A DNA stretch of 64,000 nucleotides from Eledone cirrhosa. Its lineage: Eukaryota. A program made the translations under genes and the position numbers. The notes under the pieces were generated by a model. The model made no database searches. It saw only the letters and a program-made list of their open reading frames with translations, and had not been told where the DNA came from. The stretch spans positions 76,074,001-76,138,000 of the forward strand of contig OZ024747.1 in NCBI GenBank assembly GCA_964016885.1, read 5' to 3'. Positions 10,269 through 61,070 of this stretch are shown here, piece after piece (position 1 is the stretch's first letter; each line of letters begins with the position of its first letter).

Positions 10269-10288
10269 CGCGTGTGTGTGTGTGTATA

Positions 10289-10801
<513 letters not shown>

Positions 10802-11055
10802 TAGATAGATAGATAGATAGATAAATTTCTATTTATTTGCCACGAGGGCACAAAAGAAGGGGACATTTACACAGTGGGGGAGTTTACATAAATCGAGTAA
10901 AGAAAAAAGGAATAACAATAATAATATAACAATAAAAAGTCCTCAAAAGGGAGGGGGCGTGTTGGGGATTGCACATACCCCCGAAAAGTGTGCAACTCTT
11001 TTCGCGGGGGAAGCCCAGAGAGGAGGCGCTCCCCCTTTCCTCTTCACTTCTTCAC

Positions 11056-14000
11056 CTACAGAACAATGTAGAGAGAAGGCCCATTTACACGGGCCATTCT
11101 CGCTTCTTTCACCCACCTTTCATAAAACTGTCTGGGACCAAGCACTTCTCTCTCCATCCTGATTCTTCTTCCGAAGTGGTATCGGAAGAAGTAAACCAGG
11201 TGATGGCCGGAGAGAAAGTCACCCGACCTCAGACCTTTCAGGCGCGTCCACCACACAACCTCTTTCATCATGGCTATTACGCACAGAAAGACCGCCTCTG
11301 CTTCATTTCTGAAGGGAGGAGGCGGCTTGATGTTCACCACAGACTCGGCGGTTAATCGAATCGGCGCCACACGCGACAGCAGTCGTTCGACGTAGCCCCA
11401 CAGATCGGCAACGCCCGGGCAGTGTACCAGTGCATGCGCAACGGTTTCCTCGTCGCGCACGCATCTGGGACAGATCTTTTTCGCGGGATCCCTGCCCGGG
11501 CGCCCGTGTCTGTAGAGCTTTTCTCGAACGGGCAGAGCCCCCCGGTAACACTGCCAGGCTAGGGACCTCTGGAAGTTGTCCATGGGTCCCGGGCCGAAAG
11601 TTCTACCGAACAGGCTGGCCAGTTCGTCCTCCTCCATGCCTAGCGACTCTCCAAGGGTGTCGTCGCCCCTGCTAGCCACCAACCCTCTATAGAATGTCGA
11701 GGTGGATTCTCCACTGACAGTCGGGTCCGCTTGCCAGATAGCCGTGAGCGCCTGGGCACACTCGGTGTGCCAGTTGCCCAGTTTTCTCGGTCTTTGCTTC
11801 ACCCAGGATTGCAGTTCGGTGAGCGAGACGAGCTGTGGGAAGGCTCGCCTCACAAACGGAGCCCACACCGGCTGACCGTTGAGGAATACCTGTAGATGCC
11901 ATAGCCTCAATGCGTGCCTACGCATCAACAACCACGGCATACCCAGCCCTCCTTTCGAAGGGTGCTGGCAGCAGATGGATCTCCTCACCATGGGAGGCCG
12001 CTTCTTCCAGAGGAACTGGAAGAGCATGCGTTCCATGATGGTGAGCTTTTCCTTGGGGCAAGGCACGACGGTCAGGCGGTAGTAGATGACGGACGCTATG
12101 TAAGCGTTCGTCACCTCCGCCCGACCTTTCAGTGATAGTTTGCACTTGGCCCACTTCTGGGTCAGCGCAAACACCCTGCTCGTCACCTCGCCCCAATTCT
12201 TCTCCACCTGGAGGTCCGGTCCGAACCAGACCCCGAGCAGCTTCACCGGGCCCTCCGTCCACCGCCCGACGACACCGTCTAACGGCATCGGTTTGCCCCT
12301 CCACGTTCCGAGTTGCAAACCGACTGACTTGTCCTGGTTCAGCTTAGCCCCCGTCAGCCTTTCGTATTCCTCCAGTAGGGTGGCGATCGCCCCGATTTCC
12401 GAGGCGTCCGCCACCATTACTGTTACGTCGTCGGCATAGGCCGAGACCGCTTTGTGCAATCCCGGTTCCAGGGGTATGCCCCGCAGCAACTCCAACTTCC
12501 GCAGCAGTGGCTCGAGAGTCAATACGTACAGAAGGGAGGAGAGGGGGCACCCCTGTCTGATGGATCGGGTGATTTGAAACGGCTCCGAGAGGTAGCCGTT
12601 TACTTTAATCCTAGAGTAGATGTTGCCACTGTGCATGGCAGAAATCCAGCCCCTGAAAACGGGTCCGAAGCCCGCCGCCGCTAGCACCGCATCCAGGTAA
12701 CCATGGTCGACCCTATCGAACGCCTTAGATTGATCCAAGTTGATCAGGGCCCCACCAAAGCCGGGTTCGTAGCCAACCCTCTCTATGATGTATCGCATGA
12801 GGTGGAGGTTGTCGTGAATGGACCTGGACGGGATAGCGCATGTCTGCGCGTCTCCCACCAAACCACCCACCACAAGCGCCAACCTCTTCGCCAACACCTT
12901 GGCCAAAATCTGTAACTCTGCATTCAGCAGAGTTATGGGCCTAAAGTTACTTAAGTCGTCCCCCTTGCTCTCGTCCTTCCTCACTAGCGTGACCACGCCC
13001 TTGGTCACAGAACAGGGAATTCTCCCGTTCTGTTGCCAGTTGCAATAGACAGCCTCGAGGAGTTCGGAGAACAAGACCGGCATAGCTAAATAAAGTTCGT
13101 ATGGTAGACCATCGAGACCCGGGGATTTGCGTCTGCTGCATTGGCTGAGCGCTTCCCCGATTTCAGTGGCTGTGATTGGCCTTTCGCAGCACTCCGCTTC
13201 GCCGCTCGAAAGACGCGGTAGACCGTCGAGGTATGGACCGAAGTCCACATCCCCGTCCGGCCCCCCGCCACCTCCGAACAGTCGAGCAAAGTGCCTTTGA
13301 AAGGTCTCGCACATTCGCTCAGGTTCAAGGGTCACCCGTCCATCCTGGTCTCGCAAAGACCGAATGGTGGATTTAATCCCACTCTTGGCTTCTGTCACGC
13401 GGGCCCAGCTAACAGCTTTGGTCCCCTCGTTTCCTAAAGCACGTATTTTACTTCGGACAACGCAGCCTTCGTGCTTCGCGTCAAAGAACTGGCTCAATGC
13501 CGTTCTCGTCGCTAACACTCTGGCTACGTCTCCGCTCCTAATCGCCTCTTCTAGTTTATCTGTTAACTCCCTTTCCCTCCTATTTCTATTCGCCGCTAGT
13601 TCCTTACTGTAACCTATCGAACTTACTCTAATCTCTCTCTTTAGAGATATCCACCACCTACTGTTGACGATCGCTCCCGTCAACCGCATCTTAACTAAGC
13701 TACTAATCCGGTTTCTGTAATCTTTCTTTGTCGGTAAGGACAAGTTCATCTTCCAGTAACCGGGACCCTGTCTATGCGTTCTATCAAGGTTGACCACGCA
13801 GGTCACTAATTTGTGATCTGAATAGCCAACCATGATCAGTTCTGGACAACTAAATACGTCCCTATCCTTACTCCTAACCAAAAACCTATCTAGGTACGAT
13901 CTAGATTGTCCACTGCGGTTTGCCCAGGTCCAGGTTGGCGCAGTTGGACAATCTAGTCGAAATCTATCGACCAGGTCGAATCGATCGAGTAACCCCTTGA

Positions 14001-14490
14001 GGCTGCTACACCCCCCTCTATCGGGACATGCCCCTGCATAGTCCCAACGCGCATCTAGGATTCCATTCCAGTCCCCCACTAAAAGCAGGGAACGCGACGT
14101 TCCTAGAAAAGTCTCCAGACGCTGGAAGAAGTCGGCTCTTTCCGCCCCGAAGGGAGCATAAAGACCGACCAGTCTGAAAGCCCCGCCTTCACCGCCTCCG
14201 ACGTCCAGCACCAGTAATCGACCCCCCGGGTCCGAGTGAACAATCTGTACGTCGAGAGTCAGACGTTTATCCAGCAGTACGGCAACTCCCCCCCCCCCCC
14301 CGCCTCCGGGTTGACAGAGAGATGCGTGCATCTCAAAGTCATCGAAGGCGGGCGCCAGCTGTCTCACGCTGCTGATCCGACTCTCGCTAACAACCATCAC
14401 ATCTATACTTTGTGACCTGAGGTCACTTAGAAGCTTTGCTTGCTTCCAAGCTGAGCCCAGGCCACGCGCGTTCAAACAGCCAACTCTCAA
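11056..14490 (-). CDS. Tx1/L1 ORF2p: APE endonuclease, reverse transcriptase, C-terminal CCHC finger (1144 aa)
   Basis: LNARGL, GDWN, SYLDRF and SDH endonuclease motifs; KSPGLDG, FRPITLLN, LDQSKAFDRV, RQGCPLS and YADD RT motifs; CPRC..ETVAHALVHC. Frame is open; it begins at TTG 5 nt after the ORF1 stop. Confidence 0.95.
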   Translation of the reverse strand: MRVGCLNARGLGSAWKQAKLLSDLRSQSIDVMVVSESRISSVRQLAPAFDDFEMHASLCQPGGGGGGGVAVLLDKRLTLDVQIVHSDPGGRLLVLDVGGGEGGAFRLVGLYAPFGAERADFFQRLETFLGTSRSLLLVGDWNGILDARWDYAGACPDRGGCSSLKGLLDRFDLVDRFRLDCPTAPTWTWANRSGQSRSYLDRFLVRSKDRDVFSCPELIMVGYSDHKLVTCVVNLDRTHRQGPGYWKMNLSLPTKKDYRNRISSLVKMRLTGAIVNSRWWISLKREIRVSSIGYSKELAANRNRRERELTDKLEEAIRSGDVARVLATRTALSQFFDAKHEGCVVRSKIRALGNEGTKAVSWARVTEAKSGIKSTIRSLRDQDGRVTLEPERMCETFQRHFARLFGGGGGPDGDVDFGPYLDGLPRLSSGEAECCERPITATEIGEALSQCSRRKSPGLDGLPYELYLAMPVLFSELLEAVYCNWQQNGRIPCSVTKGVVTLVRKDESKGDDLSNFRPITLLNAELQILAKVLAKRLALVVGGLVGDAQTCAIPSRSIHDNLHLMRYIIERVGYEPGFGGALINLDQSKAFDRVDHGYLDAVLAAAGFGPVFRGWISAMHSGNIYSRIKVNGYLSEPFQITRSIRQGCPLSSLLYVLTLEPLLRKLELLRGIPLEPGLHKAVSAYADDVTVMVADASEIGAIATLLEEYERLTGAKLNQDKSVGLQLGTWRGKPMPLDGVVGRWTEGPVKLLGVWFGPDLQVEKNWGEVTSRVFALTQKWAKCKLSLKGRAEVTNAYIASVIYYRLTVVPCPKEKLTIMERMLFQFLWKKRPPMVRRSICCQHPSKGGLGMPWLLMRRHALRLWHLQVFLNGQPVWAPFVRRAFPQLVSLTELQSWVKQRPRKLGNWHTECAQALTAIWQADPTVSGESTSTFYRGLVASRGDDTLGESLGMEEDELASLFGRTFGPGPMDNFQRSLAWQCYRGALPVREKLYRHGRPGRDPAKKICPRCVRDEETVAHALVHCPGVADLWGYVERLLSRVAPIRLTAESVVNIKPPPPFRNEAEAVFLCVIAMMKEVVWWTRLKGLRSGDFLSGHHLVYFFRYHFGRRIRMEREVLGPRQFYERWVKEARMARVNGPSLYIVL

Positions 14491-14495
14491 TTGAT

Positions 14496-16332
14496 CTATT
14501 TTGGTGTTGAAAGTGAAGAAAGAAAAGCACTTACCTCTCCGGGTTGCGTAATTTCCATGGCATCAGGTGTGTTGGGTGGAGGGATGTTTTGTGGTGGTGT
14601 GGGGGTACACGTGTGTGGTGGGGTTGGGGTATTTGGAGTTGTGTCAGGGAGAGGGGCGGTTATGGGGAAATCTTTCAAGAGGACGCGATTCAACGGTTTT
14701 AAACAGCGGGGGCTCACGTCCCGTCTAAATTGTTCTTTTAAGGAACGATAAAGGTCCAGAGGGACCTTTATCATTTTTAAATGGGTGAAGTTCTCTGTTG
14801 AGATAAAGTTTGGCCCTTCGGTCTGCACTATAGGGTTATTGTTTATTAATTTAACCAGTTTTTTGTTTTCTTTATTTATATATGTGTATTGCAACGTCTT
14901 TTTTTGTGATGCTGTCAATGTTTCGGAGAGGGGAGGCGCAGATTTGTTTTTGTTTGTTGAGGGTGGGGTGTTTTTGATTGGAGTTGGTGTTTGTGTGTGG
15001 GTTATTTGTGGTGTGCTGGGTGTGTGTTTTCTTTTTTTTCTTTTAACTTGTCTGAAGGCTTCTCCTCCTTCTTCTTCAGAAGTTGGGGGAAACTCTTCAG
15101 CGCTAGGTGGGAGGGACGTGTTGTGTGGTTGTTTTTTTTTTGCGGGACGGGTAGATTTGTTACTGTTTTTTTTATTATTTGTTTGGAATGGGTTTTGTGG
15201 TGGTGGTGGTGGTAATGTTTGTGTCGTGCTTGTGGTTGGTGATGGTGGTGGTGATGTTTGTGTTGTGGTTGGTGGTGGTGATTTTTGTGTCGTGCTTGTG
15301 TTTGGTGCTGGTGGTGGTGATGTTTGTGTTGTGTTTGTGGTTGGTGGTGTCTGTATTTTGTTTGCTGTGTGTGGTATTAGTGTATTTTTGGAGGTGGGTG
15401 GTGTTGGTGTACTGTTTGTGGTGGGTGTGGGCAATAGTCCTTTTTGGGGGATACGTTTCGGGCAGTTAGCCTTAACGTGTCCCCTTTCCATGCATTAATA
15501 GCATGCTGGTCTTCTCCCCTCTACAATTATGTCTATTGGGGTAAGGTCATCCAGCCAGATGCGATCCGGGATTTGTGCTATTCTTTCGGGCCTCATTTGG
15601 ACTAGTATGTCGAGGCCCATTCCCAGGAACGCATCTCCAGTTGCCTTCCCCATTGACAGCATTGTGTCTTCGCCCATATCAATGAAGCCAGCAATAGCCC
15701 ACCAGAAGTCCATTGTGGGCAGCATGGTTTTTACTTTTACTCTCTGTGTTCTTCTACCCATGTAGGACGGATAGAAGCTATATGTTGTCGACGAGAGTGG
15801 GCTTAGGGAAAGCTTCTCCGCCGTTTCTTTGTCTCTTGTTAGGACCGAAATGCTGCCATAGAGTCGGTCCTTTCGTATGAAGAGAATATTCTTCATATAG
15901 TCTTTTAGGACTAACTCTATTTCCATTTGGCTGGGCTGTGCTGGCTTTCTTGTCTGGTTCAGTATAGTTCTGTAGAGAACTGTGTTTTCTGCTCTGGCTT
16001 TCTTGAATTCTGGGGGGGGAGTTAATGGAAAACATTCCGTTCTCCCCCAAAACAATGTGTTTCTTTGCTTCGGCCAGTTTTTCTCTGGCGGCAGTTAGGT
16101 CAATTGGTGTGTATGTAATGGATTGTTTTGTTTTCTGGGCGAAAGTTGCCCTGTCGTTATTTGTATTATTTTCTGTTTGTTTGTTTTCTGTTTGCTCATT
16201 TTCCTTAACATTTGTTTTTTCATTTTGTTTGTTTGTTTCAATGTCTAATTTTGTTGTAATTATTTTTTGTTCTTCAGACTTGGGGGGCGTGGCAGAGCTA
16301 ATGGCAGACATGTCTGCCATCTTTTCCGCCAT
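14496..16332 (-). pseudogene. Tx1 ORF1p (Gag-like), disrupted
   Basis: Three ORF pieces join through a frameshift near the G run at ~16012-16019 and a TAA (15495-15497) inside the CX2CX4HX4C knuckle (CY*CMERGHVKANC); Pro/Thr-rich C-terminus. Confidence 0.85.
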
Positions 16333-16636
16333 GCTGCCAAGAAAGAAATTTTTCGGCAAAAATAGATATTTATTTTACCCCCTAAAAAGGGGGTAAATGC
16401 AAAAATGTTTCCCTAAATAACAGGGGTTAGTGTTCCAAATGTGTTGCACTAAAAAATTTATCCGTTACTTACAATAGTAAGGGTAAATCCCGATGGAATA
16501 GCGGAGCCGATGCGAAGCGTGTCTTACTCTATCAAGATAGATAGATAGATAGATAGATATAGATATATATCTGTGCTTATGTTACGTGTTCATGAATATG
16601 TATTTTATTCCATATATGTTATACTTTCTCACCGTC

Positions 16637-19525: not shown

Positions 19526-19793
19526 ACCTTCCTTTAATTATAATAGAAAAGAAACTGTGATTTGAGGTTTGTTTTCCTGAAATATCTATACATTACAACA
19601 AAGTAATATATCATTGGTCTCATTCATAAGAAAAGGTATATATATATATATATACATTATGAAGAGAGAAGAAACATTTAGATATAATTAGTAATAAAAT
19701 GTATCATACCTAAACTGCTCCTAGATTCCTCGACTACGTAGTTTCGTGGCATAAACAAAAACAATACATCATAAAGATATATATATATAATAT

Positions 19794-19975
19794 AGATGAG
19801 ATTCCACAGGACTAGAACTGTTTCATTCATTAGAAATCATCAGATTCCTGATGATTTCTAAAGAATGAAACAGTTCTAGTCCTGTAGAATCTCATCTATA
19901 TTAAAACTTGTATACTCTGCTATGTATTGAGTACCTTACTTACTGTGGTTACCTCCGATTCAACCCGGAATAACG
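19794..19975 (+). mobile_element. Fold-back HHR element, family C, copy 1
   Basis: ~100-bp palindrome whose right arm is an HHR; tail TACTC-TGC-tat-GTA-TT-GAGTA; in (TA)n; near-identical copies at 20001 and 56750. Confidence 0.85.
19842..19892 (+). ncRNA. Type I hammerhead ribozyme
   Basis: agattc-CTGATGA-t ttc taaa gaa t-GAAA-CAG ttctagtc CTG-TA-gaatct; all three stems pair; GUA site. Confidence 0.8.
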
Positions 19976-20000
19976 TATATATATATATATATATATATAT

Positions 20001-20183
20001 AGATGAGATTCTACAGGACTAGAACTGTTTCATTCATTAGAAATCATCAGGAATCCCTGATGATTTCTAATGAATGAAACAGTTCTAGTCCTGTAGAATC
20101 TCATCTATATTAAAACTGTTATACTCTGCTATGTATTGAGTACCTTACTTACTGTGGTTACCTCCGATTCAACCCGGAATAAC
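20001..20183 (+). mobile_element. Fold-back HHR element, family C, copy 2
   Basis: Near-identical to 19794-19975, with a different hairpin turn. Confidence 0.85.
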
Positions 20184-20289
<106 letters not shown>

Positions 20290-20402
20290 ACATATATATA
20301 CTTTTGAAAGTAATTACATATTGTCTAATTTGATAAATGTTATGATAGTTTATTATATTCATTTCAGCGCATTGATCAGAGGAAATGGCGAAAAGTATAT
20401 AT

Positions 20403-20900
20403 ATAAACGGAAAAAATGAAACGATATTTCATTTCCCACTCTTAGTACGGCTGTTAGCAACCACCGTTGCTCGTTTGTTCAACACTGACAAAGGAACGCT
20501 GTACTAGTTTCAAGCTTGTTAGCTATCGTCAGCAACGTATACCTTCCTGCCAGATTGTTGAACGTATATACTTACCTTATGCATATTAACGGCTGAGTAG
20601 CCCAATTTGCATATCGAGTGGATTAATCGGCCGGGTGCACCGAAAACGATAAACGGAAAAAATGAAACGATATTTCATTTCCCACTCTAGTACAGCGTTC
20701 CTTTGTCAGTGTTGAACAAACCAGCAACGGGGGTTGCTAGACACTACGGCTTAATACGGGATGTTTGTTTACAAATACACCGAGCATTATAATAAATGTT
20801 CGGTGAATCCATACGTGCATATATATATATGTGCATGTATGTATATATATACATACTACTGTACGTCTGTATACATATATGTATGTACGTGTACATACTT
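20403..20900 (-). mobile_element. Dispersed, diverged relative of the 468-bp array unit (just over one unit plus an inverted arm)
   Basis: Aligns by eye with the array unit; direct repeat aaacggaaaaaatgaaacgatatttcatttcccact with a 246-bp period; inverted arm ~20687-20900; HHR at 20497-20537. Confidence 0.9.
20497..20537 (-). ncRNA. Minimal type I hammerhead ribozyme
   Basis: Minus strand: cgttg-CTGACGA-t agc taacaa gct t-GAAA-CTAG-TA-cagcg. Confidence 0.85.
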
Positions 20901-20934
20901 ATATGTATATATATATATATTTTTTTTTTTTTAA

Positions 20935-36874: not shown

Positions 36875-36880
<6 letters not shown>

Positions 36881-39800
36881 TGAAACAAAATGAAAACGAA
36901 ATTTCATTTCTCACTCTTAGTATGGCACTTACTTAAATGTAAGTATGCATGTATACGTACATACATATATGTATACAGACGTACAGTAGCATGCACATAT
37001 ATATATATATATACATATATATATACATATGCATACAGGTACACATACATATATGCACGTATCAGTTTAGCGGCGCTAACGTCGCTTTGTTCGTTTGTAA
37101 ACAAACTGAACAGCCTGAATTTATGCCATACGGTGTTAAGGCAACCACGTCACCTTTTTGTTCAACACTGACACAGGAACGATGTACTAGTTTCAAGCTT
37201 GTTAGCTATCATCAGCACCGTTTACCCATCTGCCAGATAGTTGAACGTTCGAAAGTATATACTTTCCTTATGAAAATTAACGGCTGAGCAGCCTAATTTG
37301 CATATTGAGTGAGTTAAATCGGTCAGGCATACCGAAAACGATAAATTGAAACAAAATGAAAACGAAATTTCATTTCTCACTCTTAGTATGGCACTTACTT
37401 AAATGTAAGTATGCATGTATACGTACATACATATATGTATACAGACGTACAGTAGCATGCACATATATATATATATATATACATATATATATACATATGC
37501 ATACAGGTACACATACATATATGCACGTATCAGTTTAGCGGCGCTAACGTCGCTTTGTTCGTTTGTAAACAAACTGAACAGCCTGAATTTATGCCATACG
37601 GTGTTAAGGCAACCACGTCACCTTTTTGTTCAACACTGACACAGGAACGATGTACTAGTTTCAAGCTTGTTAGCTATCATCAGCACCGTTTACCCATCTG
37701 CCAGATAGTTGAACGTTCGAAAGTATATACATTCCTTATGAAAATTAACGGCTGAGCAGCCTAATTTGCATATTGAGTGAGTTAAATCGGTCAGGCATAC
37801 CGAAAACGATAAATTGAAACAAAATGAAAACGAAATTTCATTTCTCACTCTTAGTATGGCACTTACTTAAATGTAAGTATGCATGTATACGTACATACAT
37901 ATATGTATACAGACGTACAGTAGCATGCACATATATATATATATATATACATATATATATACATATGCATACAGGTACACATACATATATGCACGTATCA
38001 GTTTAGCGGCGCTAACGTCGCTTTGTTCGTTTGTAAACAAACTGAACAGCCTGAATTTATGCCATACGGTGTTAAGGCAACCACGTCACCTTTTTGTTCA
38101 ACACTGACACAGGAACGATGTACTAGTTTCAAGCTTGTTAGCTATCATCAGCACCGTTTACCCATCTGCCAGATAGTTGAACGTTCGAAAGTATATACTT
38201 TCCTTATGAAAATTAACGGCTGAGCAGCCTAATTTGCATATTGAGTGAGTTAAATCGGTCAGGCATACCGAAAACGATAAATTGAAACAAAATGAAAACG
38301 AAATTTCATTTCTCACTCTTAGTATGGCACTTACTTAAATGTAAGTATGCATGTATACGTACATACATATATGTATACAGACGTACAGTAGCATGCACAT
38401 ATATATATATATATATACATATATATATACATATGCATACAGGTACACATACATATATGCACGTATCAGTTTAGCGGCGCTAACGTCGCTTTGTTCGTTT
38501 GTAAACAAACTGAACAGCCTGAATTTATGCCATACGGTGTTAAGGCAACCACGTCACCTTTTTTGTTCAACACTGACACAGGAACGATGTACTAGTTTCA
38601 AGCTTGTTAGCTATCATCAGCACCGTTTACCCATCTGCCAGATAGTTGAACGTTCGAAAGTATATACTTTCCTTATGAAAATTAACGGCTGAGCAGCCTA
38701 ATTTGCATATTGAGTGAGTTAAATCGGTCAGGCATACCGAAAACGATAAATTGAAACAAAATGAAAACGAAATTTCATTTCTCACTCTTAGTATGGCACT
38801 TACTTAAATGTAAGTATGCATGTATACGTACATACATATATGTATACAGACGTACAGTAGCATGCACATATATATATATATATACATATATATATACATA
38901 TGCATACAGGTACACATACATATATGCACGTATCAGTTTAGCGGCGCTAACGTCGCTTTGTTCGTTTGTAAACAAACTGAACAGCCTGAATTTATGCCAT
39001 ACGGTGTTAAGGCAACCACGTCACCTTTTTGTTCAACACTGACACAGGAACGATGTACTAGTTTCAAGCTTGTTAGCTATCATCAGCACCGTTTACCCAT
39101 CTGCCAGATAGTTGAACGTTCGAAAGTATATACTTTCCTTATGAAAATTAACGGCTGAGCAGCCTAATTTGCATATTGAGTGAGTTAAATCGGTCAGGCA
39201 TACCGAAAACGATAAATTGAAACAAAATGAAAACGAAATTTCATTTCTCACTCTTAGTATGGCACTTACTTAAATGTAAGTATGCATGTATACGTACATA
39301 CATATATGTATACAGACGTACAGTAGCATGCACATATATATATATATATATACATATATATATACATATGCATACAGGTACACATACATATATGCACGTA
39401 TCAGTTTAGCGGCGCTAACGTCGCTTTGTTCGTTTGTAAACAAACTGAACAGCCTGAATTTATGCCATACGGTGTTAAGGCAACCACGTCACCTTTTTGT
39501 TCAACACTGACACAGGAACGATGTACTAGTTTCAAGCTTGTTAGCTATCATCAGCACCGTTTACCCATCTGCCAGATAGTTGAACGTTCGAAAGTATATA
39601 CATTCCTTATGAAAATTAACGGCTGAGCAGCCTAATTTGCATATTGAGTGAGTTAAATCGGTCAGGCATACCGAAAACGATAAATTGAAACAAAATGAAA
39701 ACGAAATTTCATTTCTCACTCTTAGTATGGCACTTACTTAAATGTAAGTATGCATGTATACGTACATACATATATGTATACAGACGTACAGTAGCATGCA

Positions 39801-42800
39801 CATATATATATATATATATACATATATATATACATATGCATACAGGTACACATACATATATGCACGTATCAGTTTAGCGGCGCTAACGTCGCTTTGTTCG
39901 TTTGTAAACAAACTGAACAGCCTGAATTTATGCCATACGGTGTTAAGGCAACCACGTCACCTTTTTGTTCAACACTGACACAGGAACGATGTACTAGTTT
40001 CAAGCTTGTTAGCTATCATCAGCACCGTTTACCCATCTGCCAGATAGTTGAACGTTCGAAAGTATATACTTTCCTTATGAAAATTAACGGCTGAGCAGCC
40101 TAATTTGCATATTGAGTGAGTTAAATCGGTCAGGCATACCGAAAACGATAAATTGAAACAAAATGAAAACGAAATTTCATTTCTCACTCTTAGTATGGCA
40201 CTTACTTAAATGTAAGTATGCATGTATACGTACATACATATATGTATACAGACGTACAGTAGCATGCACATATATATATATATATATATACATATATATA
40301 TACATATGCATACAGGTACACATACATATATGCACGTATCAGTTTAGCGGCGCTAACGTCGCTTTGTTCGTTTGTAAACAAACTGAACAGCCTGAATTTA
40401 TGCCATACGGTGTTAAGGCAACCACGTCACCTTTTTGTTCAACACTGACACAGGAACGATGTACTAGTTTCAAGCTTGTTAGCTATCATCAGCACCGTTT
40501 ACCCATCTGCCAGATAGTTGAACGTTCGAAAGTATATACATTCCTTATGAAAATTAACGGCTGAGCAGCCTAATTTGCATATTGAGTGAGTTAAATCGGT
40601 CAGGCATACCGAAAACGATAAATTGAAACAAAATGAAAACGAAATTTCATTTCTCACTCTTAGTATGGCACTTACTTAAATGTAAGTATGCATGTATACG
40701 TACATACATATATGTATACAGACGTACAGTAGCATGCACATATATATATATATATATACATATATATATACATATGCATACAGGTACACATACATATATG
40801 CACGTATCAGTTTAGCGGCGCTAACGTCGCTTTGTTCGTTTGTAAACAAACTGAACAGCCTGAATTTATGCCATACGGTGTTAAGGCAACCACGTCACCT
40901 TTTTGTTCAACACTGACACAGGAACGATGTACTAGTTTCAAGCTTGTTAGCTATCATCAGCACCGTTTACCCATCTGCCAGATAGTTGAACGTTCGAAAG
41001 TATATACTTTCCTTATGAAAATTAACGGCTGAGCAGCCTAATTTGCATATTGAGTGAGTTAAATCGGTCAGGCATACCGAAAACGATAAATTGAAACAAA
41101 ATGAAAACGAAATTTCATTTCTCACTCTTAGTATGGCACTTACTTAAATGTAAGTATGCATGTATACGTACATACATATATGTATACAGACGTACAGTAG
41201 CATGCACATATATATATATATATATACATATATATATACATATGCATACAGGTACACATACATATATGCACGTATCAGTTTAGCGGCGCTAACGTCGCTT
41301 TGTTCGTTTGTAAACAAACTGAACAGCCTGAATTTATGCCATACGGTGTTAAGGCAACCACGTCACCTTTTTGTTCAACACTGACACAGGAACGATGTAC
41401 TAGTTTCAAGCTTGTTAGCTATCATCAGCACCGTTTACCCATCTGCCAGATAGTTGAACGTTCGAAAGTATATACATTCCTTATGAAAATTAACGGCTGA
41501 GCAGCCTAATTTGCATATTGAGTGAGTTAAATCGGTCAGGCATACCGAAAACGATAAATTGAAACAAAATGAAAACGAAATTTCATTTCTCACTCTTAGT
41601 ATGGCACTTACTTAAATGTAAGTATGCATGTATACGTACATACATATATGTATACAGACGTACAGTAGCATGCACATATATATATATATATATACATATA
41701 TATATACATATGCATACAGGTACACATACATATATGCACGTATCAGTTTAGCGGCGCTAACGTCGCTTTGTTCGTTTGTAAACAAACTGAACAGCCTGAA
41801 TTTATGCCATACGGTGTTAAGGCAACCACGTCACCTTTTTGTTCAACACTGACACAGGAACGATGTACTAGTTTCAAGCTTGTTAGCTATCATCAGCACC
41901 GTTTACCCATCTGCCAGATAGTTGAACGTTCGAAAGTATATACTTTCCTTATGAAAATTAACGGCTGAGCAGCCTAATTTGCATATTGAGTGAGTTAAAT
42001 CGGTCAGGCATACCGAAAACGATAAATTGAAACAAAATGAAAACGAAATTTCATTTCTCACTCTTAGTATGGCACTTACTTAAATGTAAGTATGCATGTA
42101 TACGTACATACATATATGTATACAGACGTACAGTAGCATGCACATATATATATATATATATACATATATATATACATATGCATACAGGTACACATACATA
42201 TATGCACGTATCAGTTTAGCGGCGCTAACGTCGCTTTGTTCGTTTGTAAACAAACTGAACAGCCTGAATTTATGCCATACGGTGTTAAGGCAACCACGTC
42301 ACCTTTTTTGTTCAACACTGACACAGGAACGATGTACTAGTTTCAAGCTTGTTAGCTATCATCAGCACCGTTTACCCATCTGCCAGATAGTTGAACGTTC
42401 GAAAGTATATACTTTCCTTATGAAAATTAACGGCTGAGCAGCCTAATTTGCATATTGAGTGAGTTAAATCGGTCAGGCATACCGAAAACGATAAATTGAA
42501 ACAAAATGAAAACGAAATTTCATTTCTCACTCTTAGTATGGCACTTACTTAAATGTAAGTATGCATGTATACGTACATACATATATGTATACAGACGTAC
42601 AGTAGCATGCACATATATATATATATATACATATATATATACATATGCATACAGGTACACATACATATATGCACGTATCAGTTTAGCGGCGCTAACGTCG
42701 CTTTGTTCGTTTGTAAACAAACTGAACAGCCTGAATTTATGCCATACGGTGTTAAGGCAACCACGTCACCTTTTTGTTCAACACTGACACAGGAACGATG

Positions 42801-45800
42801 TACTAGTTTCAAGCTTGTTAGCTATCATCAGCACCGTTTACCCATCTGCCAGATAGTTGAACGTTCGAAAGTATATACTTTCCTTATGAAAATTAACGGC
42901 TGAGCAGCCTAATTTGCATATTGAGTGAGTTAAATCGGTCAGGCATACCGAAAACGATAAATTGAAACAAAATGAAAACGAAATTTCATTTCTCACTCTT
43001 AGTATGGCACTTACTTAAATGTAAGTATGCATGTATACGTACATACATATATGTATACAGACGTACAGTAGCATGCACATATATATATATATATATACAT
43101 ATATATATACATATGCATACAGGTACACATACATATATGCACGTATCAGTTTAGCGGCGCTAACGTCGCTTTGTTCGTTTGTAAACAAACTGAACAGCCT
43201 GAATTTATGCCATACGGTGTTAAGGCAACCACGTCACCTTTTTGTTCAACACTGACACAGGAACGATGTACTAGTTTCAAGCTTGTTAGCTATCATCAGC
43301 ACCGTTTACCCATCTGCCAGATAGTTGAACGTTCGAAAGTATATACATTCCTTATGAAAATTAACGGCTGAGCAGCCTAATTTGCATATTGAGTGAGTTA
43401 AATCGGTCAGGCATACCGAAAACGATAAATTGAAACAAAATGAAAACGAAATTTCATTTCTCACTCTTAGTATGGCACTTACTTAAATGTAAGTATGCAT
43501 GTATACGTACATACATATATGTATACAGACGTACAGTAGCATGCACATATATATATATATATATACATATATATATACATATGCATACAGGTACACATAC
43601 ATATATGCACGTATCAGTTTAGCGGCGCTAACGTCGCTTTGTTCGTTTGTAAACAAACTGAACAGCCTGAATTTATGCCATACGGTGTTAAGGCAACCAC
43701 GTCACCTTTTTGTTCAACACTGACACAGGAACGATGTACTAGTTTCAAGCTTGTTAGCTATCATCAGCACCGTTTACCCATCTGCCAGATAGTTGAACGT
43801 TCGAAAGTATATACTTTCCTTATGAAAATTAACGGCTGAGCAGCCTAATTTGCATATTGAGTGAGTTAAATCGGTCAGGCATACCGAAAACGATAAATTG
43901 AAACAAAATGAAAACGAAATTTCATTTCTCACTCTTAGTATGGCACTTACTTAAATGTAAGTATGCATGTATACGTACATACATATATGTATACAGACGT
44001 ACAGTAGCATGCACATATATATATATATATATATACATATATATATACATATGCATACAGGTACACATACATATATGCACGTATCAGTTTAGCGGCGCTA
44101 ACGTCGCTTTGTTCGTTTGTAAACAAACTGAACAGCCTGAATTTATGCCATACGGTGTTAAGGCAACCACGTCACCTTTTTGTTCAACACTGACACAGGA
44201 ACGATGTACTAGTTTCAAGCTTGTTAGCTATCATCAGCACCGTTTACCCATCTGCCAGATAGTTGAACGTTCGAAAGTATATACATTCCTTATGAAAATT
44301 AACGGCTGAGCAGCCTAATTTGCATATTGAGTGAGTTAAATCGGTCAGGCATACCGAAAACGATAAATTGAAACAAAATGAAAACGAAATTTCATTTCTC
44401 ACTCTTAGTATGGCACTTACTTAAATGTAAGTATGCATGTATACGTACATACATATATGTATACAGACGTACAGTAGCATGCACATATATATATATATAT
44501 ATACATATATATATACATATGCATACAGGTACACATACATATATGCACGTATCAGTTTAGCGGCGCTAACGTCGCTTTGTTCGTTTGTAAACAAACTGAA
44601 CAGCCTGAATTTATGCCATACGGTGTTAAGGCAACCACGTCACCTTTTTGTTCAACACTGACACAGGAACGATGTACTAGTTTCAAGCTTGTTAGCTATC
44701 ATCAGCACCGTTTACCCATCTGCCAGATAGTTGAACGTTCGAAAGTATATACTTTCCTTATGAAAATTAACGGCTGAGCAGCCTAATTTGCATATTGAGT
44801 GAGTTAAATCGGTCAGGCATACCGAAAACGATAAATTGAAACAAAATGAAAACGAAATTTCATTTCTCACTCTTAGTATGGCACTTACTTAAATGTAAGT
44901 ATGCATGTATACGTACATACATATATGTATACAGACGTACAGTAGCATGCACATATATATATATATATATACATATATATATACATATGCATACAGGTAC
45001 ACATACATATATGCACGTATCAGTTTAGCGGCGCTAACGTCGCTTTGTTCGTTTGTAAACAAACTGAACAGCCTGAATTTATGCCATACGGTGTTAAGGC
45101 AACCACGTCACCTTTTTGTTCAACACTGACACAGGAACGATGTACTAGTTTCAAGCTTGTTAGCTATCATCAGCACCGTTTACCCATCTGCCAGATAGTT
45201 GAACGTTCGAAAGTATATACATTCCTTATGAAAATTAACGGCTGAGCAGCCTAATTTGCATATTGAGTGAGTTAAATCGGTCAGGCATACCGAAAACGAT
45301 AAATTGAAACAAAATGAAAACGAAATTTCATTTCTCACTCTTAGTATGGCACTTACTTAAATGTAAGTATGCATGTATACGTACATACATATATGTATAC
45401 AGACGTACAGTAGCATGCACATATATATATATATATATACATATATATATACATATGCATACAGGTACACATACATATATGCACGTATCAGTTTAGCGGC
45501 GCTAACGTCGCTTTGTTCGTTTGTAAACAAACTGAACAGCCTGAATTTATGCCATACGGTGTTAAGGCAACCACGTCACCTTTTTGTTCAACACTGACAC
45601 AGGAACGATGTACTAGTTTCAAGCTTGTTAGCTATCATCAGCACCGTTTACCCATCTGCCAGATAGTTGAACGTTCGAAAGTATATACTTTCCTTATGAA
45701 AATTAACGGCTGAGCAGCCTAATTTGCATATTGAGTGAGTTAAATCGGTCAGGCATACCGAAAACGATAAATTGAAACAAAATGAAAACGAAATTTCATT

Positions 45801-48800
45801 TCTCACTCTTAGTATGGCACTTACTTAAATGTAAGTATGCATGTATACGTACATACATATATGTATACAGACGTACAGTAGCATGCACATATATATATAT
45901 ATATATACATATATATATACATATGCATACAGGTACACATACATATATGCACGTATCAGTTTAGCGGCGCTAACGTCGCTTTGTTCGTTTGTAAACAAAC
46001 TGAACAGCCTGAATTTATGCCATACGGTGTTAAGGCAACCACGTCACCTTTTTTGTTCAACACTGACACAGGAACGATGTACTAGTTTCAAGCTTGTTAG
46101 CTATCATCAGCACCGTTTACCCATCTGCCAGATAGTTGAACGTTCGAAAGTATATACTTTCCTTATGAAAATTAACGGCTGAGCAGCCTAATTTGCATAT
46201 TGAGTGAGTTAAATCGGTCAGGCATACCGAAAACGATAAATTGAAACAAAATGAAAACGAAATTTCATTTCTCACTCTTAGTATGGCACTTACTTAAATG
46301 TAAGTATGCATGTATACGTACATACATATATGTATACAGACGTACAGTAGCATGCACATATATATATATATATACATATATATATACATATGCATACAGG
46401 TACACATACATATATGCACGTATCAGTTTAGCGGCGCTAACGTCGCTTTGTTCGTTTGTAAACAAACTGAACAGCCTGAATTTATGCCATACGGTGTTAA
46501 GGCAACCACGTCACCTTTTTGTTCAACACTGACACAGGAACGATGTACTAGTTTCAAGCTTGTTAGCTATCATCAGCACCGTTTACCCATCTGCCAGATA
46601 GTTGAACGTTCGAAAGTATATACTTTCCTTATGAAAATTAACGGCTGAGCAGCCTAATTTGCATATTGAGTGAGTTAAATCGGTCAGGCATACCGAAAAC
46701 GATAAATTGAAACAAAATGAAAACGAAATTTCATTTCTCACTCTTAGTATGGCACTTACTTAAATGTAAGTATGCATGTATACGTACATACATATATGTA
46801 TACAGACGTACAGTAGCATGCACATATATATATATATATATACATATATATATACATATGCATACAGGTACACATACATATATGCACGTATCAGTTTAGC
46901 GGCGCTAACGTCGCTTTGTTCGTTTGTAAACAAACTGAACAGCCTGAATTTATGCCATACGGTGTTAAGGCAACCACGTCACCTTTTTGTTCAACACTGA
47001 CACAGGAACGATGTACTAGTTTCAAGCTTGTTAGCTATCATCAGCACCGTTTACCCATCTGCCAGATAGTTGAACGTTCGAAAGTATATACATTCCTTAT
47101 GAAAATTAACGGCTGAGCAGCCTAATTTGCATATTGAGTGAGTTAAATCGGTCAGGCATACCGAAAACGATAAATTGAAACAAAATGAAAACGAAATTTC
47201 ATTTCTCACTCTTAGTATGGCACTTACTTAAATGTAAGTATGCATGTATACGTACATACATATATGTATACAGACGTACAGTAGCATGCACATATATATA
47301 TATATATATACATATATATATACATATGCATACAGGTACACATACATATATGCACGTATCAGTTTAGCGGCGCTAACGTCGCTTTGTTCGTTTGTAAACA
47401 AACTGAACAGCCTGAATTTATGCCATACGGTGTTAAGGCAACCACGTCACCTTTTTGTTCAACACTGACACAGGAACGATGTACTAGTTTCAAGCTTGTT
47501 AGCTATCATCAGCACCGTTTACCCATCTGCCAGATAGTTGAACGTTCGAAAGTATATACTTTCCTTATGAAAATTAACGGCTGAGCAGCCTAATTTGCAT
47601 ATTGAGTGAGTTAAATCGGTCAGGCATACCGAAAACGATAAATTGAAACAAAATGAAAACGAAATTTCATTTCTCACTCTTAGTATGGCACTTACTTAAA
47701 TGTAAGTATGCATGTATACGTACATACATATATGTATACAGACGTACAGTAGCATGCACATATATATATATATATATACATATATATATACATATGCATA
47801 CAGGTACACATACATATATGCACGTATCAGTTTAGCGGCGCTAACGTCGCTTTGTTCGTTTGTAAACAAACTGAACAGCCTGAATTTATGCCATACGGTG
47901 TTAAGGCAACCACGTCACCTTTTTGTTCAACACTGACACAGGAACGATGTACTAGTTTCAAGCTTGTTAGCTATCATCAGCACCGTTTACCCATCTGCCA
48001 GATAGTTGAACGTTCGAAAGTATATACATTCCTTATGAAAATTAACGGCTGAGCAGCCTAATTTGCATATTGAGTGAGTTAAATCGGTCAGGCATACCGA
48101 AAACGATAAATTGAAACAAAATGAAAACGAAATTTCATTTCTCACTCTTAGTATGGCACTTACTTAAATGTAAGTATGCATGTATACGTACATACATATA
48201 TGTATACAGACGTACAGTAGCATGCACATATATATATATATACATATATATATACATATGCATACAGGTACACATACATATATGCACGTATCAGTTTAGC
48301 GGCGCTAACGTCGCTTTGTTCGTTTGTAAACAAACTGAACAGCCTGAATTTATGCCATACGGTGTTAAGGCAACCACGTCACCTTTTTGTTCAACACTGA
48401 CACAGGAACGATGTACTAGTTTCAAGCTTGTTAGCTATCATCAGCACCGTTTACCCATCTGCCAGATAGTTGAACGTTCGAAAGTATATACTTTCCTTAT
48501 GAAAATTAACGGCTGAGCAGCCTAATTTGCATATTGAGTGAGTTAAATCGGTCAGGCATACCGAAAACGATAAATTGAAACAAAATGAAAACGAAATTTC
48601 ATTTCTCACTCTTAGTATGGCACTTACTTAAATGTAAGTATGCATGTATACGTACATACATATATGTATACAGACGTACAGTAGCATGCACATATATATA
48701 TATATATATACATATATATATACATATGCATACAGGTACACATACATATATGCACGTATCAGTTTAGCGGCGCTAACGTCGCTTTGTTCGTTTGTAAACA

Positions 48801-50558
48801 AACTGAACAGCCTGAATTTATGCCATACGGTGTTAAGGCAACCACGTCACCTTTTTTGTTCAACACTGACACAGGAACGATGTACTAGTTTCAAGCTTGT
48901 TAGCTATCATCAGCACCGTTTACCCATCTGCCAGATAGTTGAACGTTCGAAAGTATATACTTTCCTTATGAAAATTAACGGCTGAGCAGCCTAATTTGCA
49001 TATTGAGTGAGTTAAATCGGTCAGGCATACCGAAAACGATAAATTGAAACAAAATGAAAACGAAATTTCATTTCTCACTCTTAGTATGGCACTTACTTAA
49101 ATGTAAGTATGCATGTATACGTACATACATATATGTATACAGACGTAGAGTAGCATGCACATATATATATATATATACATATATATATACATATGCATAC
49201 AGGTACACATACATATATGCACGTATCAGTTTAGCGGCGCTAACGTCGCTTTGTTCGTTTGTAAACAAACTGAACAGCCTGAATTTATGCCATACGGTGT
49301 TAAGGCAACCACGTCACCTTTTTGTTCAACACTGACACAGGAACGATGTACTAGTTTCAAGCTTGTTAGCTATCATCAGCACCGTTTACCCATCTGCCAG
49401 ATAGTTGAACGTTCGAAAGTATATACTTTCCTTATGAAAATTAACGGCTGAGCAGCCTAATTTGCATATTGAGTGAGTTAAATCGGTCAGGCATACCGAA
49501 AACGATAAATTGAAACAAAATGAAAACGAAATTTCATTTCTCACTCTTAGTATGGCACTTACTTAAATGTAAGTATGCATGTATACGTACATACATATAT
49601 GTATACAGACGTACAGTAGCATGCACATATATATATATATATACATATATATATACATATGCATACAGGTACACATACATATATGCACGTATCAGTTTAG
49701 CGGCGCTAACGTCGCTTTGTTCGTTTGTAAACAAACTGAACAGCCTGAATTTATGCCATACGGTGTTAAGGCAACCACGTCACCTTTTTGTTCAACACTG
49801 ACACAGGAACGATGTACTAGTTTCAAGCTTGTTAGCTATCATCAGCACCGTTTACCCATCTGCCAGATAGTTGAACGTTCGAAAGTATATACTTTCCTTA
49901 TGAAAATTAACGGCTGAGCAACCTAATTTGCATATTGAGTGAGTTAAATCGGTCAGGCATACCGAAAACGATAAATTGAAACAAAATGAAAACGAAATTT
50001 CATTTCTCACTCTTAGTATGGCACTTACTTAAATGTAAGTATGCATGTATACGTACATACATATATGTATACAGACGTACAATAGCATGCACATATATAT
50101 ATATATATACATATATATATACATATGCATACAGGTACACATACATATATGCACGTATCAGTTTAGCGGCGCTAACGTCGCTTTGTTCGTTTGTAAACAA
50201 ACTGAACAGCCTGAATTTATGCCATACGGTGTTAAGGCAACCACGTCACCTTTTTGTTCAACACTGACACAGGAACGATGTACTAGTTTCAAGCTTGTTA
50301 GCTATCATCAGCACCGTTTACCCATCTGCCAGATAGTTGAACGTTCGAAAGTATATACTTTCCTTATGAAAATTAACGGCTGAGCAGCCTAATTTGCATA
50401 TTGAGTGAGTTAAATCGGTCAGGCATACCGAAAACGATAAATTGAAACAAAATGAAAACGAAATTTCATTTTTCACTCTTAGTATGGCACTTACTTAAAT
50501 GTAAGTATGCATGTATACGTACATACATATATGTATACAGACGTACAGTAGCATGCAC

Positions 50559-50589
<31 letters not shown>

Positions 50590-51233
50590 CATATGCATAC
50601 AGGTACACATACATATATGCACGTATCAGTTTAGCGGCGCTAACGTCGCTTTGTTCGTTTGTAAACAAACTGAACAGCCTGAATTTATGCCATACGGTGT
50701 TAAGGTAACCACGTCACCTTTTTGTTCAACACTGACACAGGAACGATGTACTAGTTTCAAGCTTGTTAGCTATCATCAGCACCGTTTACCCATCTGCCAG
50801 ATAGTTGAACGTTCGAAAGTATATACTTTCCTTATGAAAATTAACGGCTGAGCAGCCTAATTTGCATATTGAGTGAGTTAAATCGGTCAGGCATACCGAA
50901 AACGATAAATTGAAACAAAATGAAAACGAAATTTCATTTCTCACTCTTAGTATGGCACTTACTTAAATGTAAGTATGCATGTATACGTACATACATATAT
51001 GTATACAGACGTACAGTAGCATGCACATATATATATATATATACATATATATATACATATGCATACAGGTACACATACATATATGCACGTATCAGTTTAG
51101 CGGCGCTAACGTCGCTTTGTTCGTTTGTAAACAAACTGAACAGCCTGAATTTATGCCATACGGTGTTAAGGCAACCACGTCACCTTTTTGTTCAACACTG
51201 ACACAGGAACGATGTACTAGTTTCAAGCTTGTT
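36875..51233 (-). repeat. Tandem array of ~468-bp HHR-containing units (30 full plus one partial); retrozyme-like concatemer
   Basis: ORF-track starts recur every 464-470 bp from 36890 to 50920; units nearly identical; one HHR per full unit on the minus strand; the whole insertion is flanked by (TA)n. Confidence 0.95.
37180..37220 (-). ncRNA. Minimal type I hammerhead ribozyme (first of 30 copies in the array)
   Basis: Minus strand: cggtg-CTGATGA-t agc taacaa gct t-GAAA-CTAG-TA^catcg; stem I cggtg/catcg; palindromic stem III ACTAGT; predicted cut between 37185 and 37184. Confidence 0.9.
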
Positions 51234-51473
51234 TCCTGTGTCAGTGTTGAACAAAAAGGTGACGTGGTTGCCTTAACACCGTATGGCATAAATTCAGGCT
51301 GTTCAGTTTGTTTACAAACGAACAAAGCGACGTTAGCGCCGCTAAACTGATACGTGCATATATGTATGTGTACCTGTATGCATATGTATATATATATGTA
51401 TATATATATATATATGTGCATGCTACTGTACGTCTGTATACATATATGTATGTACGTATACATGCATACTTAC

Positions 51474-51478
<5 letters not shown>
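51233..51478 (+). repeat. Inverted (fold-back) arm terminating the array
   Basis: Reverse complement of ~50964-51209; the turn falls inside the last, truncated HHR; followed by (TA)n. Confidence 0.95.
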
Positions 51479-58870: not shown

Positions 58871-60426
58871 AGGTGGTTCAATAACATCAGTGACAAAAAC
58901 AAATCTTCTTTTATTCAATTCGATATAGATGAATACTATTCCTCTATTTCACCTGAAACTCTGCATTCGCTAAGGTTAACTCGGACCTCACAAACGAGGA
59001 TATTAATATTATACTTGAAGCTAGACGCACAGTAGTCCATTTTGAAAATAGTTATTGGGTCCGCAGAGATAGACCCTCGGAATTTGACATTACGATGGGT
59101 TCTAATGATTCGGCGGAAGTTACGGATTTGGTTGGAATCTATATAGCTCACAGACTCCAGAGCGAATTTATTGACCTCCACGGCGGAATCTACCGTGATG
59201 ATGCACTCCTATTAGTCAAAAATATGAACAAACAAAACCTAGAAAGGCGACGTAAAAACATTAGGAAACTTTTCTTAGAACTAGGACTTAGTATTACCTT
59301 CGAACACAATCTTAAAGTGGTCAATTTCTTGGATGTCACCTTCAACCTTAATAACGGTAATATAAAGCCATTTCACAAACTTAATGAAAATCTCAAATAC
59401 GTTAATGTAAGATCGAACCATCCCCATTCCATTATTAAATCTATCCCTAAAAATATATCCGTAAGGATCTCCCGACTATCGTCTAATTTGCAGACCTTCA
59501 ACGAGCATGCTGAGTATTATAACGACGCACTTAGAAAAGCTGGTTACTGCGAGAAAATAGAATATCTAGAAGATAACCACATAGGTACTATGAATAAATC
59601 ACATCTAAGTCGAACTAGTATTGCACCACACAGACACATTAATAGGCATAATAATAGGTGCAAACCAACAAATAGAGTTATACGTAGAGAGTACATATGG
59701 TATAACCCCGTGTACAATATTTCTATTAGCACTAAGATTATCTCGCAATTATATACACTGATCAATAAACACTTTACAACTTCACATAAATACTATAAAA
59801 TCTTAAACGCGCGCACCATTAGACTCTCATACTCCACTGCACCTAACATAGAACAACTAATTAAAAAGCTCAACTCAACAATACTAAATAAGTACATCCC
59901 TAATGACACAGCGCATCAGCATAGCGACATACAACGCACTAACACGCAGCTACAACCCCACCAAACTATCCAGGATACTACTGCAAAACATAAAAATAAC
60001 TGTAACTGCACTAAACCAGGTTCGTGCCCATTGAATAACCAATGCCTAACACGCAATATTGTCTACCGATGTACAATAAATTCCGGAACCAACAAATGGT
60101 ATTACGTCGGATGTACCGCAACATCTTTCAAAGCTCGCTTATACCAACATCGATCTTCGATCAAGCATGAGAAAATGCGCTCCGTAACAACCCTCGCCGA
60201 TAAAGCCTGGCAGCTTCGGAAGAACAATCAAGCATTCTCCCTTGATTGGCAAATTATTACAGTTGCGCCAGCATATAAGCAAAATCACCGATTTTGTAAA
60301 TTATGCAATATGGAGATATACTGCATTTTAATGTCGGAAAACAAACTTTTGAACAGCAAAATTGAACGTTCACTTTACTGTGACCATCGTTTAAAAATGA
60401 CTTTTTCTTTTTTTAAATGCATATAA
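58871..60426 (+). pseudogene. PLE reverse transcriptase-GIY-YIG protein, N-truncated and frameshifted at ~58962
   Basis: WFNNI..FIQFDIDEYYSSIS, frameshift, FDITMGSNDSAEVTDLVG, GIYRDD, VNFLDVT, SNHP, IWYNP, CNC-x5-CPL-x3-C linker, IVY..YVG..FKARLYQH, CKLCNME. The 59095-60426 ORF is its open part. Confidence 0.9.
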
Positions 60427-60854
60427 TGTTATCTTTTTACACGACCATTTGCAAATTTTTATTATTTTTATTTCATATTTTTATATGTTTATACACACGA
60501 TATCGCTTTTTATAATAATAGCACTAAACACTGTTTTTTAGACCCCTTTAGAAATATCCTGCTACTATAATAGCCCCAATAACTTTTCTATTATTCTGTA
60601 CTACATTGACCCCTTTAACTAAATTTTGTCCAAACAACACCACTAGAAGAATTTACTTCCCCCGCCACCCCTAACACGCCTCATTTAGCTAACTGCTGCC
60701 AAAACATTTTCTTCTATACAATCTCTACTACCCTGACAGTCTTGAATCCTAAGACTATCTCCCCCTTACTCGCTTCCCTCTTTCTCTTCCCTCCCTACCT
60801 CCTACTTTCTCACATATCTAGTGTATAAAATATTCTCCTATCATTCTACCATAA

Positions 60855-60971
60855 AGGTCTGACGACATGGTGTGTTCTCTTACAGTATACCTACGATTCA
60901 TGATAATATTTTTATATTATACAAATAGCGAGGTATAGGTAACCCACACACTATAGAAACAATTGTTACCT
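60855..60971 (+). ncRNA. Type I hammerhead ribozyme in the PLE 3' repeat, long stem II
   Basis: aggt-CTGACGA-c atggtgtg...cacactat a-GAAA-CAATTG-TT-acct. Confidence 0.8.
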
Positions 60972-61013
60972 AGTAAATTCTTTATACCCGCATCTCCGTT
61001 TCATAAACTTCTT

Positions 61014-61070
<57 letters not shown>

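Follow-up and report, generated by a model that had tools for sequence, protein, structure and literature searches.

Outer ends and inner junctions in an abundant hammerhead repeat family of Eledone cirrhosa

The repeat at positions 20403–20904 of the 64,000-nucleotide window (the whole stretch of Eledone cirrhosa DNA analysed) is an ordinary member of a very abundant non-coding hammerhead repeat family, in which each of the two arms of an insertion nearly always has a fixed end point of its own, different from that of the other arm. The family is best explained as a non-LTR retrozyme or non-autonomous Penelope-like (PLE) repeat with a predicted hammerhead; the proteins of Penelope-type retrotransposons probably copy it around the genome. 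Its tandem hammerhead repeats and its tailed/inverted architecture are of published kinds; the literature searched listed no paper on this family or on counting of end pairing. The single copy matters little, being one of tens of thousands, whereas the family is abundant enough for a qualitative PLE feature to be counted as a rule.

The copy at 20403–20904 and its repeat family

The 3.0-Gb assembly contains 27,265 exact matches to the hammerhead core and none in the reversed control, so the motif is not a chance occurrence. Exact S-type ends joined to TA number 3,243 at the distal and 3,826 at the proximal site, and these counts bear out the mobile family proposed in the first-pass annotation. 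Family B has 4,164 core matches and the core pattern of family C 5,335, the C core making up 99 of the first 100 matches listed. B and C, with units of 466–468 bp, share about 71% identity with S and A; across the family the units measure 422–468 bp and occur in arrays, and contigs from four sequencing runs of unrecorded kind contain the family at high depth. The unit has no open reading frame of at least 170 aa with ordinary composition.

Covaried stems and the same two-ended geometry were observed in families B and C (L024 2107–3234; L226–L270), and long arrays on both arms at C1:30.83 Mb (families B/C). The 31-unit array of the window (36875–51233) shows variant periodicity of 2, 4 and 8 units, pointing to post-insertion growth at the DNA level or to assembly effects. 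Two further arrays (L005 and L007, G000:C12 at ~20.40–20.42 Mb) repeat internally deleted units with 6–11 nt of microhomology.

The features of the copy and of the related array are as follows (D, distal site; P, proximal site):

20396–20405, no strand: (TA)n target remnant at the left end, seen directly; 96 of 114 arm ends adjoin TA-rich flanks
20403–20688, minus strand: direct ("tailed") arm, whose 3' end lies at unit position 275, the distal site D
20403–20456, minus strand: PLE-type "tail", the D-to-P segment, containing a predicted hairpin that is conserved across S, A, B and C units
20455–20457, no strand: junction of the private 176-bp deletion, with 2–3 nt of microhomology
20490–20546, minus strand: predicted type I hammerhead, core CUGACGA at 20526–20532, predicted cut between 20502 and 20501
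Within 20490–20546, minus strand: hammerhead parts, i.e. stem II, a one-pair stem III with palindromic CUAG loop, and an extended bulged stem I
20687–20688, no strand: inner head-to-head junction of the arms, with 2-nt microhomology, seen directly
20687–20904, plus strand: inverted ("tail-less") arm, unit positions 417 to ~216–219, 3' end at P, without catalytic core; most of what the direct arm has lost by deletion is present here
20906–20919, no strand: (TA)n target remnant at the right end, seen directly
36875–51233, minus strand: related insertion of subfamily A, a direct arm of 30.7 × 468 bp ending at D
51233–51478, plus strand: inverted arm of the array, ending at P against (TA)n

The copy is about 82% identical to the 468-bp array unit (262 aligned bases), while copies on other chromosomes match it at 100% over 234 bp. 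Its closest relatives share 97–100% identity and have a full 422-bp unit (subfamily S), while the array belongs to subfamily A, with a 468-bp unit and 85% identity to S over aligned bases. The copy is thus no decayed offshoot of the array, and its initial description as a diverged copy gives way to membership of a different subfamily. The direct arm comprises 246+38 bp and lacks 176 bp relative to its own subfamily; the deletion of about 220 bp reported at first applies only in comparison with the array unit, but its presence in large part in the inverted arm stands, since this arm holds about 170 bp missing from the direct one. With at most one mismatch allowed, the deletion junction matches once genome-wide, which disposes of the 246-bp deleted monomer as a subfamily; 39 other scored direct matches begin at query positions 52–57, beyond the junction, and read contigs run on into the undeleted unit at 20456.

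The inverted arm (20687–20904) begins CTAGTACAGCG, with a 2-nt overlap at its start. Its start lies immediately 5' of the cut site and the catalytic core is missing from it, which leaves one complete hammerhead at the locus. At its other end it stops, as had been noted, at the proximal site where the inverted arm of the array also ends, and (TA)n adjoins both outer ends of the copy. BLAST put the inner end of the direct arm at 219, compared with ~236, which affects no count.

The family can be compared with two published groups. Metazoan non-LTR retrozymes are described in passages of PMC7229834 as tandem hammerhead repeats, and parts of a preprint (bioRxiv 10.64898/2026.07.22.740005) argue that retrozymes descend from PLEs as non-autonomous elements. 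Like the retrozymes in these passages, the family consists of non-coding tandem units with low GC and one type I hammerhead each, is present in thousands of copies and co-occurs with PLEs. A type I core with helices is found in every unit type, and the short non-coding units run in tandem from dimers to multimers. The units, at 422–468 bp, lie at or above the upper range of the 150–450 bp given there for retrozymes. This locus departs from the retrozyme pattern in having one complete ribozyme only, whereas the array and many other loci conform to it. The inverted second arm and the fixed TA-joined ends, in contrast, are absent from the passages of PMC7229834 and the preprint that were searched ("inverted" has no match in the former, "tail" none in the latter).

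These latter traits are those of endonuclease-containing (EN+) PLEs, for which passages of PMC8557442 and PMC3846280 describe tandem copies that are partial, a 5'-truncated copy lying inverted at the 5' end, a tail confined to one end and (TA)n or AT-rich targets. The family likewise shows a tandem plus an inverted 5'-truncated arm with the tail at one end, and an AT-rich/microsatellite target, with a TA-dinucleotide fraction of at least 0.7 in the next 14 bases at 96 of 114 ends. It differs from the EN+ PLEs of those passages in having no ORF and a tail of 56 nt (S/A) or ~70 nt (B/C) instead of 30–40 bp.

Pairing of the outer ends and scatter of the inner junctions

Outer 3' ends sit against (TA)n at unit position ~275 (D) or ~213–219 (P). 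D lies 56 nt past P in S and A, and the segment between them is the PLE "tail", which measures ~70 nt in B and C. Folds predicted for all four units put P within a small hairpin's loop, with D immediately beyond a stronger hairpin.

End pairing was counted in 143 stretches, consisting of 81 of the first 99 loci, 60 end-anchored stretches and the two window loci; before counting, 17 of these first loci were set aside as overlapping or self, among them, by oversight, L042, which is a single P arm. The stretches contained 77 head-to-head arm pairs and 87 arms with no detected partner. The pairs were D+P in 58 cases, P+P in one and D+D in none; in the remaining 18 one end or both could not be placed or lay at an edge. 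One of the 58 is a local duplicate, which leaves 57 independent D+P pairs. Loci not picked by an end gave 25 D+P against one (p=4e-7 against 50:50). By hit coordinates alone, all 24 divergent pairs within 12 kb were D+P, these being overlapping and not independent loci. The same pairing was found in 15 of 15 cases in family B (21 stretches, picked favouring two-armed hits), in 5 of 5 in subfamily C (15 stretches), and in 3 of 3 in a coding RT+GIY-YIG family with a ~62-nt tail and TA flanks (L136, L139, L142). The sum over the four groups is 80 D+P, one P+P and no D+D.

Among 57 inner junctions, 21 show an overlap of 1–8 nt, 28 carry inserts, one is blunt and seven have longer overlaps, and the inner ends are scattered along the unit. 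Six of 114 inner ends lie within 6 nt of the cut site (3.8 expected, p=0.18), or four of 110 without the two window loci, which had prompted the idea (p=0.44); the whole ribozyme contains 19 of 114 (p=0.017), or 16 of 110 minus the window loci (p=0.08). On these counts, the ribozyme cut site was rejected as the start of the inverted arm. The start at the hammerhead seen in the first-pass annotation is therefore accurate for this copy and fails as a general start point, being a coincidence of two loci or at most a weak bias. Arm lengths are uncorrelated (rho −0.02).

The predicted hammerhead ribozyme

The minus strand of the copy reads CGUUG-CUGACGA-U-AGCU-AACA-AGCU-U-GAAA-CUAG-UA^CAGCG, which corresponds to a type I hammerhead (CUGACGA / AGCU-aaca-AGCU / GAAA-CUAG-UA^) with a core differing from that of the array at N7 only, in agreement with the original reading. 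A search of the window at the Rfam gathering threshold returned no match, so the hammerhead call rests on the motif and on covariation. In 60 stretches picked by the distal end and not by the ribozyme, core variation amounts to 1.1% (10/876, 11 positions), against 3.9% in the rest of the unit and 2.3% at non-diagnostic sites. Among 24 hand-picked haplotypes 90.3% of cells pair, double changes occur in 7 of 18 pairs and none of 500 shuffles reaches the score, a control that yields no probability because the structure was preset by the analyst and the sequences are related. The low core variation and the compensatory stems support the early suggestion that the ribozyme is under selection. RNA cleavage and circles are presumed for the family.

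Subfamilies S and A share the stem II sequence AGCU/AGCU, while B has AUGU/ACAU and C has UUGU/ACAA; B and C differ at 14 of 466 bases (97% identical), two of which form a compensating stem II pair. The compensatory change claimed for stem I holds as covariation at the family level, where the same pair occurs as GU, UG, UA, AU and CG across haplotypes, but the example cited, cguug/cagcg in the copy versus cggug/caucg in the array, is a single pair with a G·U to U·G wobble swap.

Stem III consists of one pair and a palindromic CUAG loop, and the closing pair of stem II in S and A is U·U. The minimum free energy structure of the monomer lacks stem III, and the single-strand fold is no better than shuffles (z-score −0.28). 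Given the U·U pair and the missing stem III, ribozyme activity in this subfamily is putative. In passages of PMC7229834 on amphibian retrozymes, this form of stem III is reported to need dimers; the one-pair stem with palindromic tetraloop of the present family resembles axolotl HHR_Amex1, and its U·U at the base of stem II resembles HHR_Amex2.

Other hammerhead-bearing sequences were also observed. A different repeat at 19777–20210 (209 bp × 2.1, TA-flanked, core match at ~19848) recurs at ~56805 and in several GIY-YIG loci. A fold-back element at ~10285–10616 contains another hammerhead-like motif on the minus strand, and loci L001–L150 contain at least 10 other types of such motifs, several with a palindromic stem III.

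Insertion mechanism and coding relatives

We consider it probable that the insertions arise by double target-primed reverse transcription, one per strand, from two start sites, on RNA of the same source and with a PLE protein acting in trans. A Penelope-like RT/GIY-YIG protein would nick both strands of a (TA)n tract, and the nicked strands would prime reverse transcription on multimeric or circular RNA of one source, from the distal site for one strand and from the proximal site, 56 nt upstream, for the other. The two cDNAs would each extend a random distance, and the far ends would be joined via microhomology or short templated patches, producing head-to-head arms, one tailed and one tail-less. 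The 176-bp deletion of the copy would be a one-off event, either a template jump or a later loss. Both the enzyme and the double priming are what we infer here. Against double priming we count the 87 partnerless arms, although the filter misses short P arms in the TA-rich part, and a target-site duplication that is unreadable in TA tracts.

In vitro work with an Anolis PLE (Poseidon PAc; PMC11167929) describes a similar process: both target strands are cut and extended, two internal RT start sites bound the tail, the targets are AT-rich and a dimer is predicted. Two results of the same work count against the reading, namely that the start site is alike on both strands and that the ribozyme is dispensable for insertion. 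Because no strand difference in start site was seen there, whereas the genomic insertions here have one site per end almost without exception, the strict one-each rule is a presumed piece that the present analysis adds. A general parallel is L1 twin priming, where each of the two target strands serves as its own primer and microhomology joins the resulting 5' inversion. The position of the second priming site varies in L1, and its arms show no overlap. The family differs in both respects, having a fixed second site and arms that overlap in unit sequence.

Three other explanations have to be weighed against double priming. Fold-back self-priming, in which the first arm folds at its end and is copied into the inverted arm, has been proposed for PLEs on an antisense template (PMC3846280, in part). 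It agrees with the near identity of the arms and with the six of 57 junctions (2.8 expected) at which both inner ends lie at most 10 nt apart. However, each arm is too short to contain its partner in 21 of 57 pairs, so that simple fold-back copying is excluded for these pairs and contradicted as a general rule; most junctions are also non-palindromic, and the stop of the second arm at the other fixed site against (TA)n is left unexplained. The ~170 bp that only the inverted arm of the copy possesses point the same way, informative only if the deletion arose at insertion. Fold-back could account for a minority of cases, and as the general mechanism it is quite unlikely. Spread as a satellite through unequal crossover and hairpin-driven inversion, the ribozyme being a passive relic of a PLE pLTR, is still less credible and in our view very improbable. 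The 8-unit higher-order repeat of the 31-unit array and the C12 arrays of internally deleted units accord with it, and the former indicates that array length was likely raised later at the DNA level, as parts of bioRxiv 10.64898/2026.07.22.740005 argue for array growth. Yet dispersed copies in their thousands terminate against (TA)n at one or other of two fixed positions, and compensatory ribozyme changes have occurred, one of them between the 97%-identical subfamilies B and C. Processes of this kind account for array growth only; for dispersal they are refuted by the fixed ends.

The source of the two arms bears on the third alternative, that two independent RNA templates from the pool of the cell were used or that two successive insertions entered one TA tract. 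In 48 arm pairs with at least 40 shared positions, divergence between arms is 3.5%, close to the 3.2% of tandem neighbours and below the 8.7% of random copies; at diagnostic sites the mismatch is 5.0%, 4.8% and 34%, respectively. Being as alike as tandem neighbours, the arms share a source. The earlier idea that they come from different templates therefore does not extend to different lineages; two separate priming events are supported. In favour of the alternative, eight of the 48 pairs show differences at no fewer than three subfamily-diagnostic sites, L002, whose arms belong to different subfamilies, looks like two insertions, and the arms of the copy differ at 2 of 53 shared bases. The two variants of the copy's inverted arm occur together only at this locus, one of them being found in five scattered copies, and an allele pair seen nowhere else speaks against a template from the pool. 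Independent insertions would, moreover, be expected to produce D+D as well as P+P pairs and to leave a run of TA at the junction. Overall we regard this alternative as unlikely. A register test for both arms on the same RNA unit gave 132 vs 116 (p=0.34), and two physical RNA molecules of one source locus may have served as templates.

Returning to double priming, a wider reading is that PLE integration is asymmetric and coupled, with an RNP, likely dimeric, on one tail element priming the nicked strands at the two ends of the tail, and D+P constituting the complete insertion. We find it plausible but lean slightly against it. If true, it would account in a single step for both the long-noted one-ended tail and the inverted pLTR, supersede the antisense self-priming model and provide genomic evidence for insertion of animal retrozymes by PLE machinery. 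The end rule itself constrains how tandem and inverted PLE insertions form (tailed at one end in passages of PMC8557442 and PMC3846280), a matter open according to part of the former, and links retrozymes to PLE machinery via an insertion signature, rather than co-occurrence.

RT+GIY-YIG elements are abundant in the genome. The unit was not found as pLTR of such an autonomous element at any of 45 GIY-YIG loci (from 10,597 candidates), a point against the mobilisation proposed above. The coding family of L136, L139 and L142, in which a tailed arm is paired with a tail-less one on (TA)n, shares its C-terminal peptide with the RVT_1+GIY-YIG ORF of L131, a locus of this family; a relaxed motif search of the 3' region of L131 gave no canonical hammerhead core. 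Subfamily C was returned, instead of the coding element sought, by a pattern that excluded the known stem II. In the window, 58957–61020 contains a 489-aa open frame like a PLE RT (YRDD), without a Pfam match; the 3' region after it ends at (TA)n and includes a hammerhead-like motif whose stem II carries a long insert. Open frames of up to 1168 aa on the minus strand at ~11000–16400 appear, as judged by eye, LINE-like with an AP-type endonuclease.
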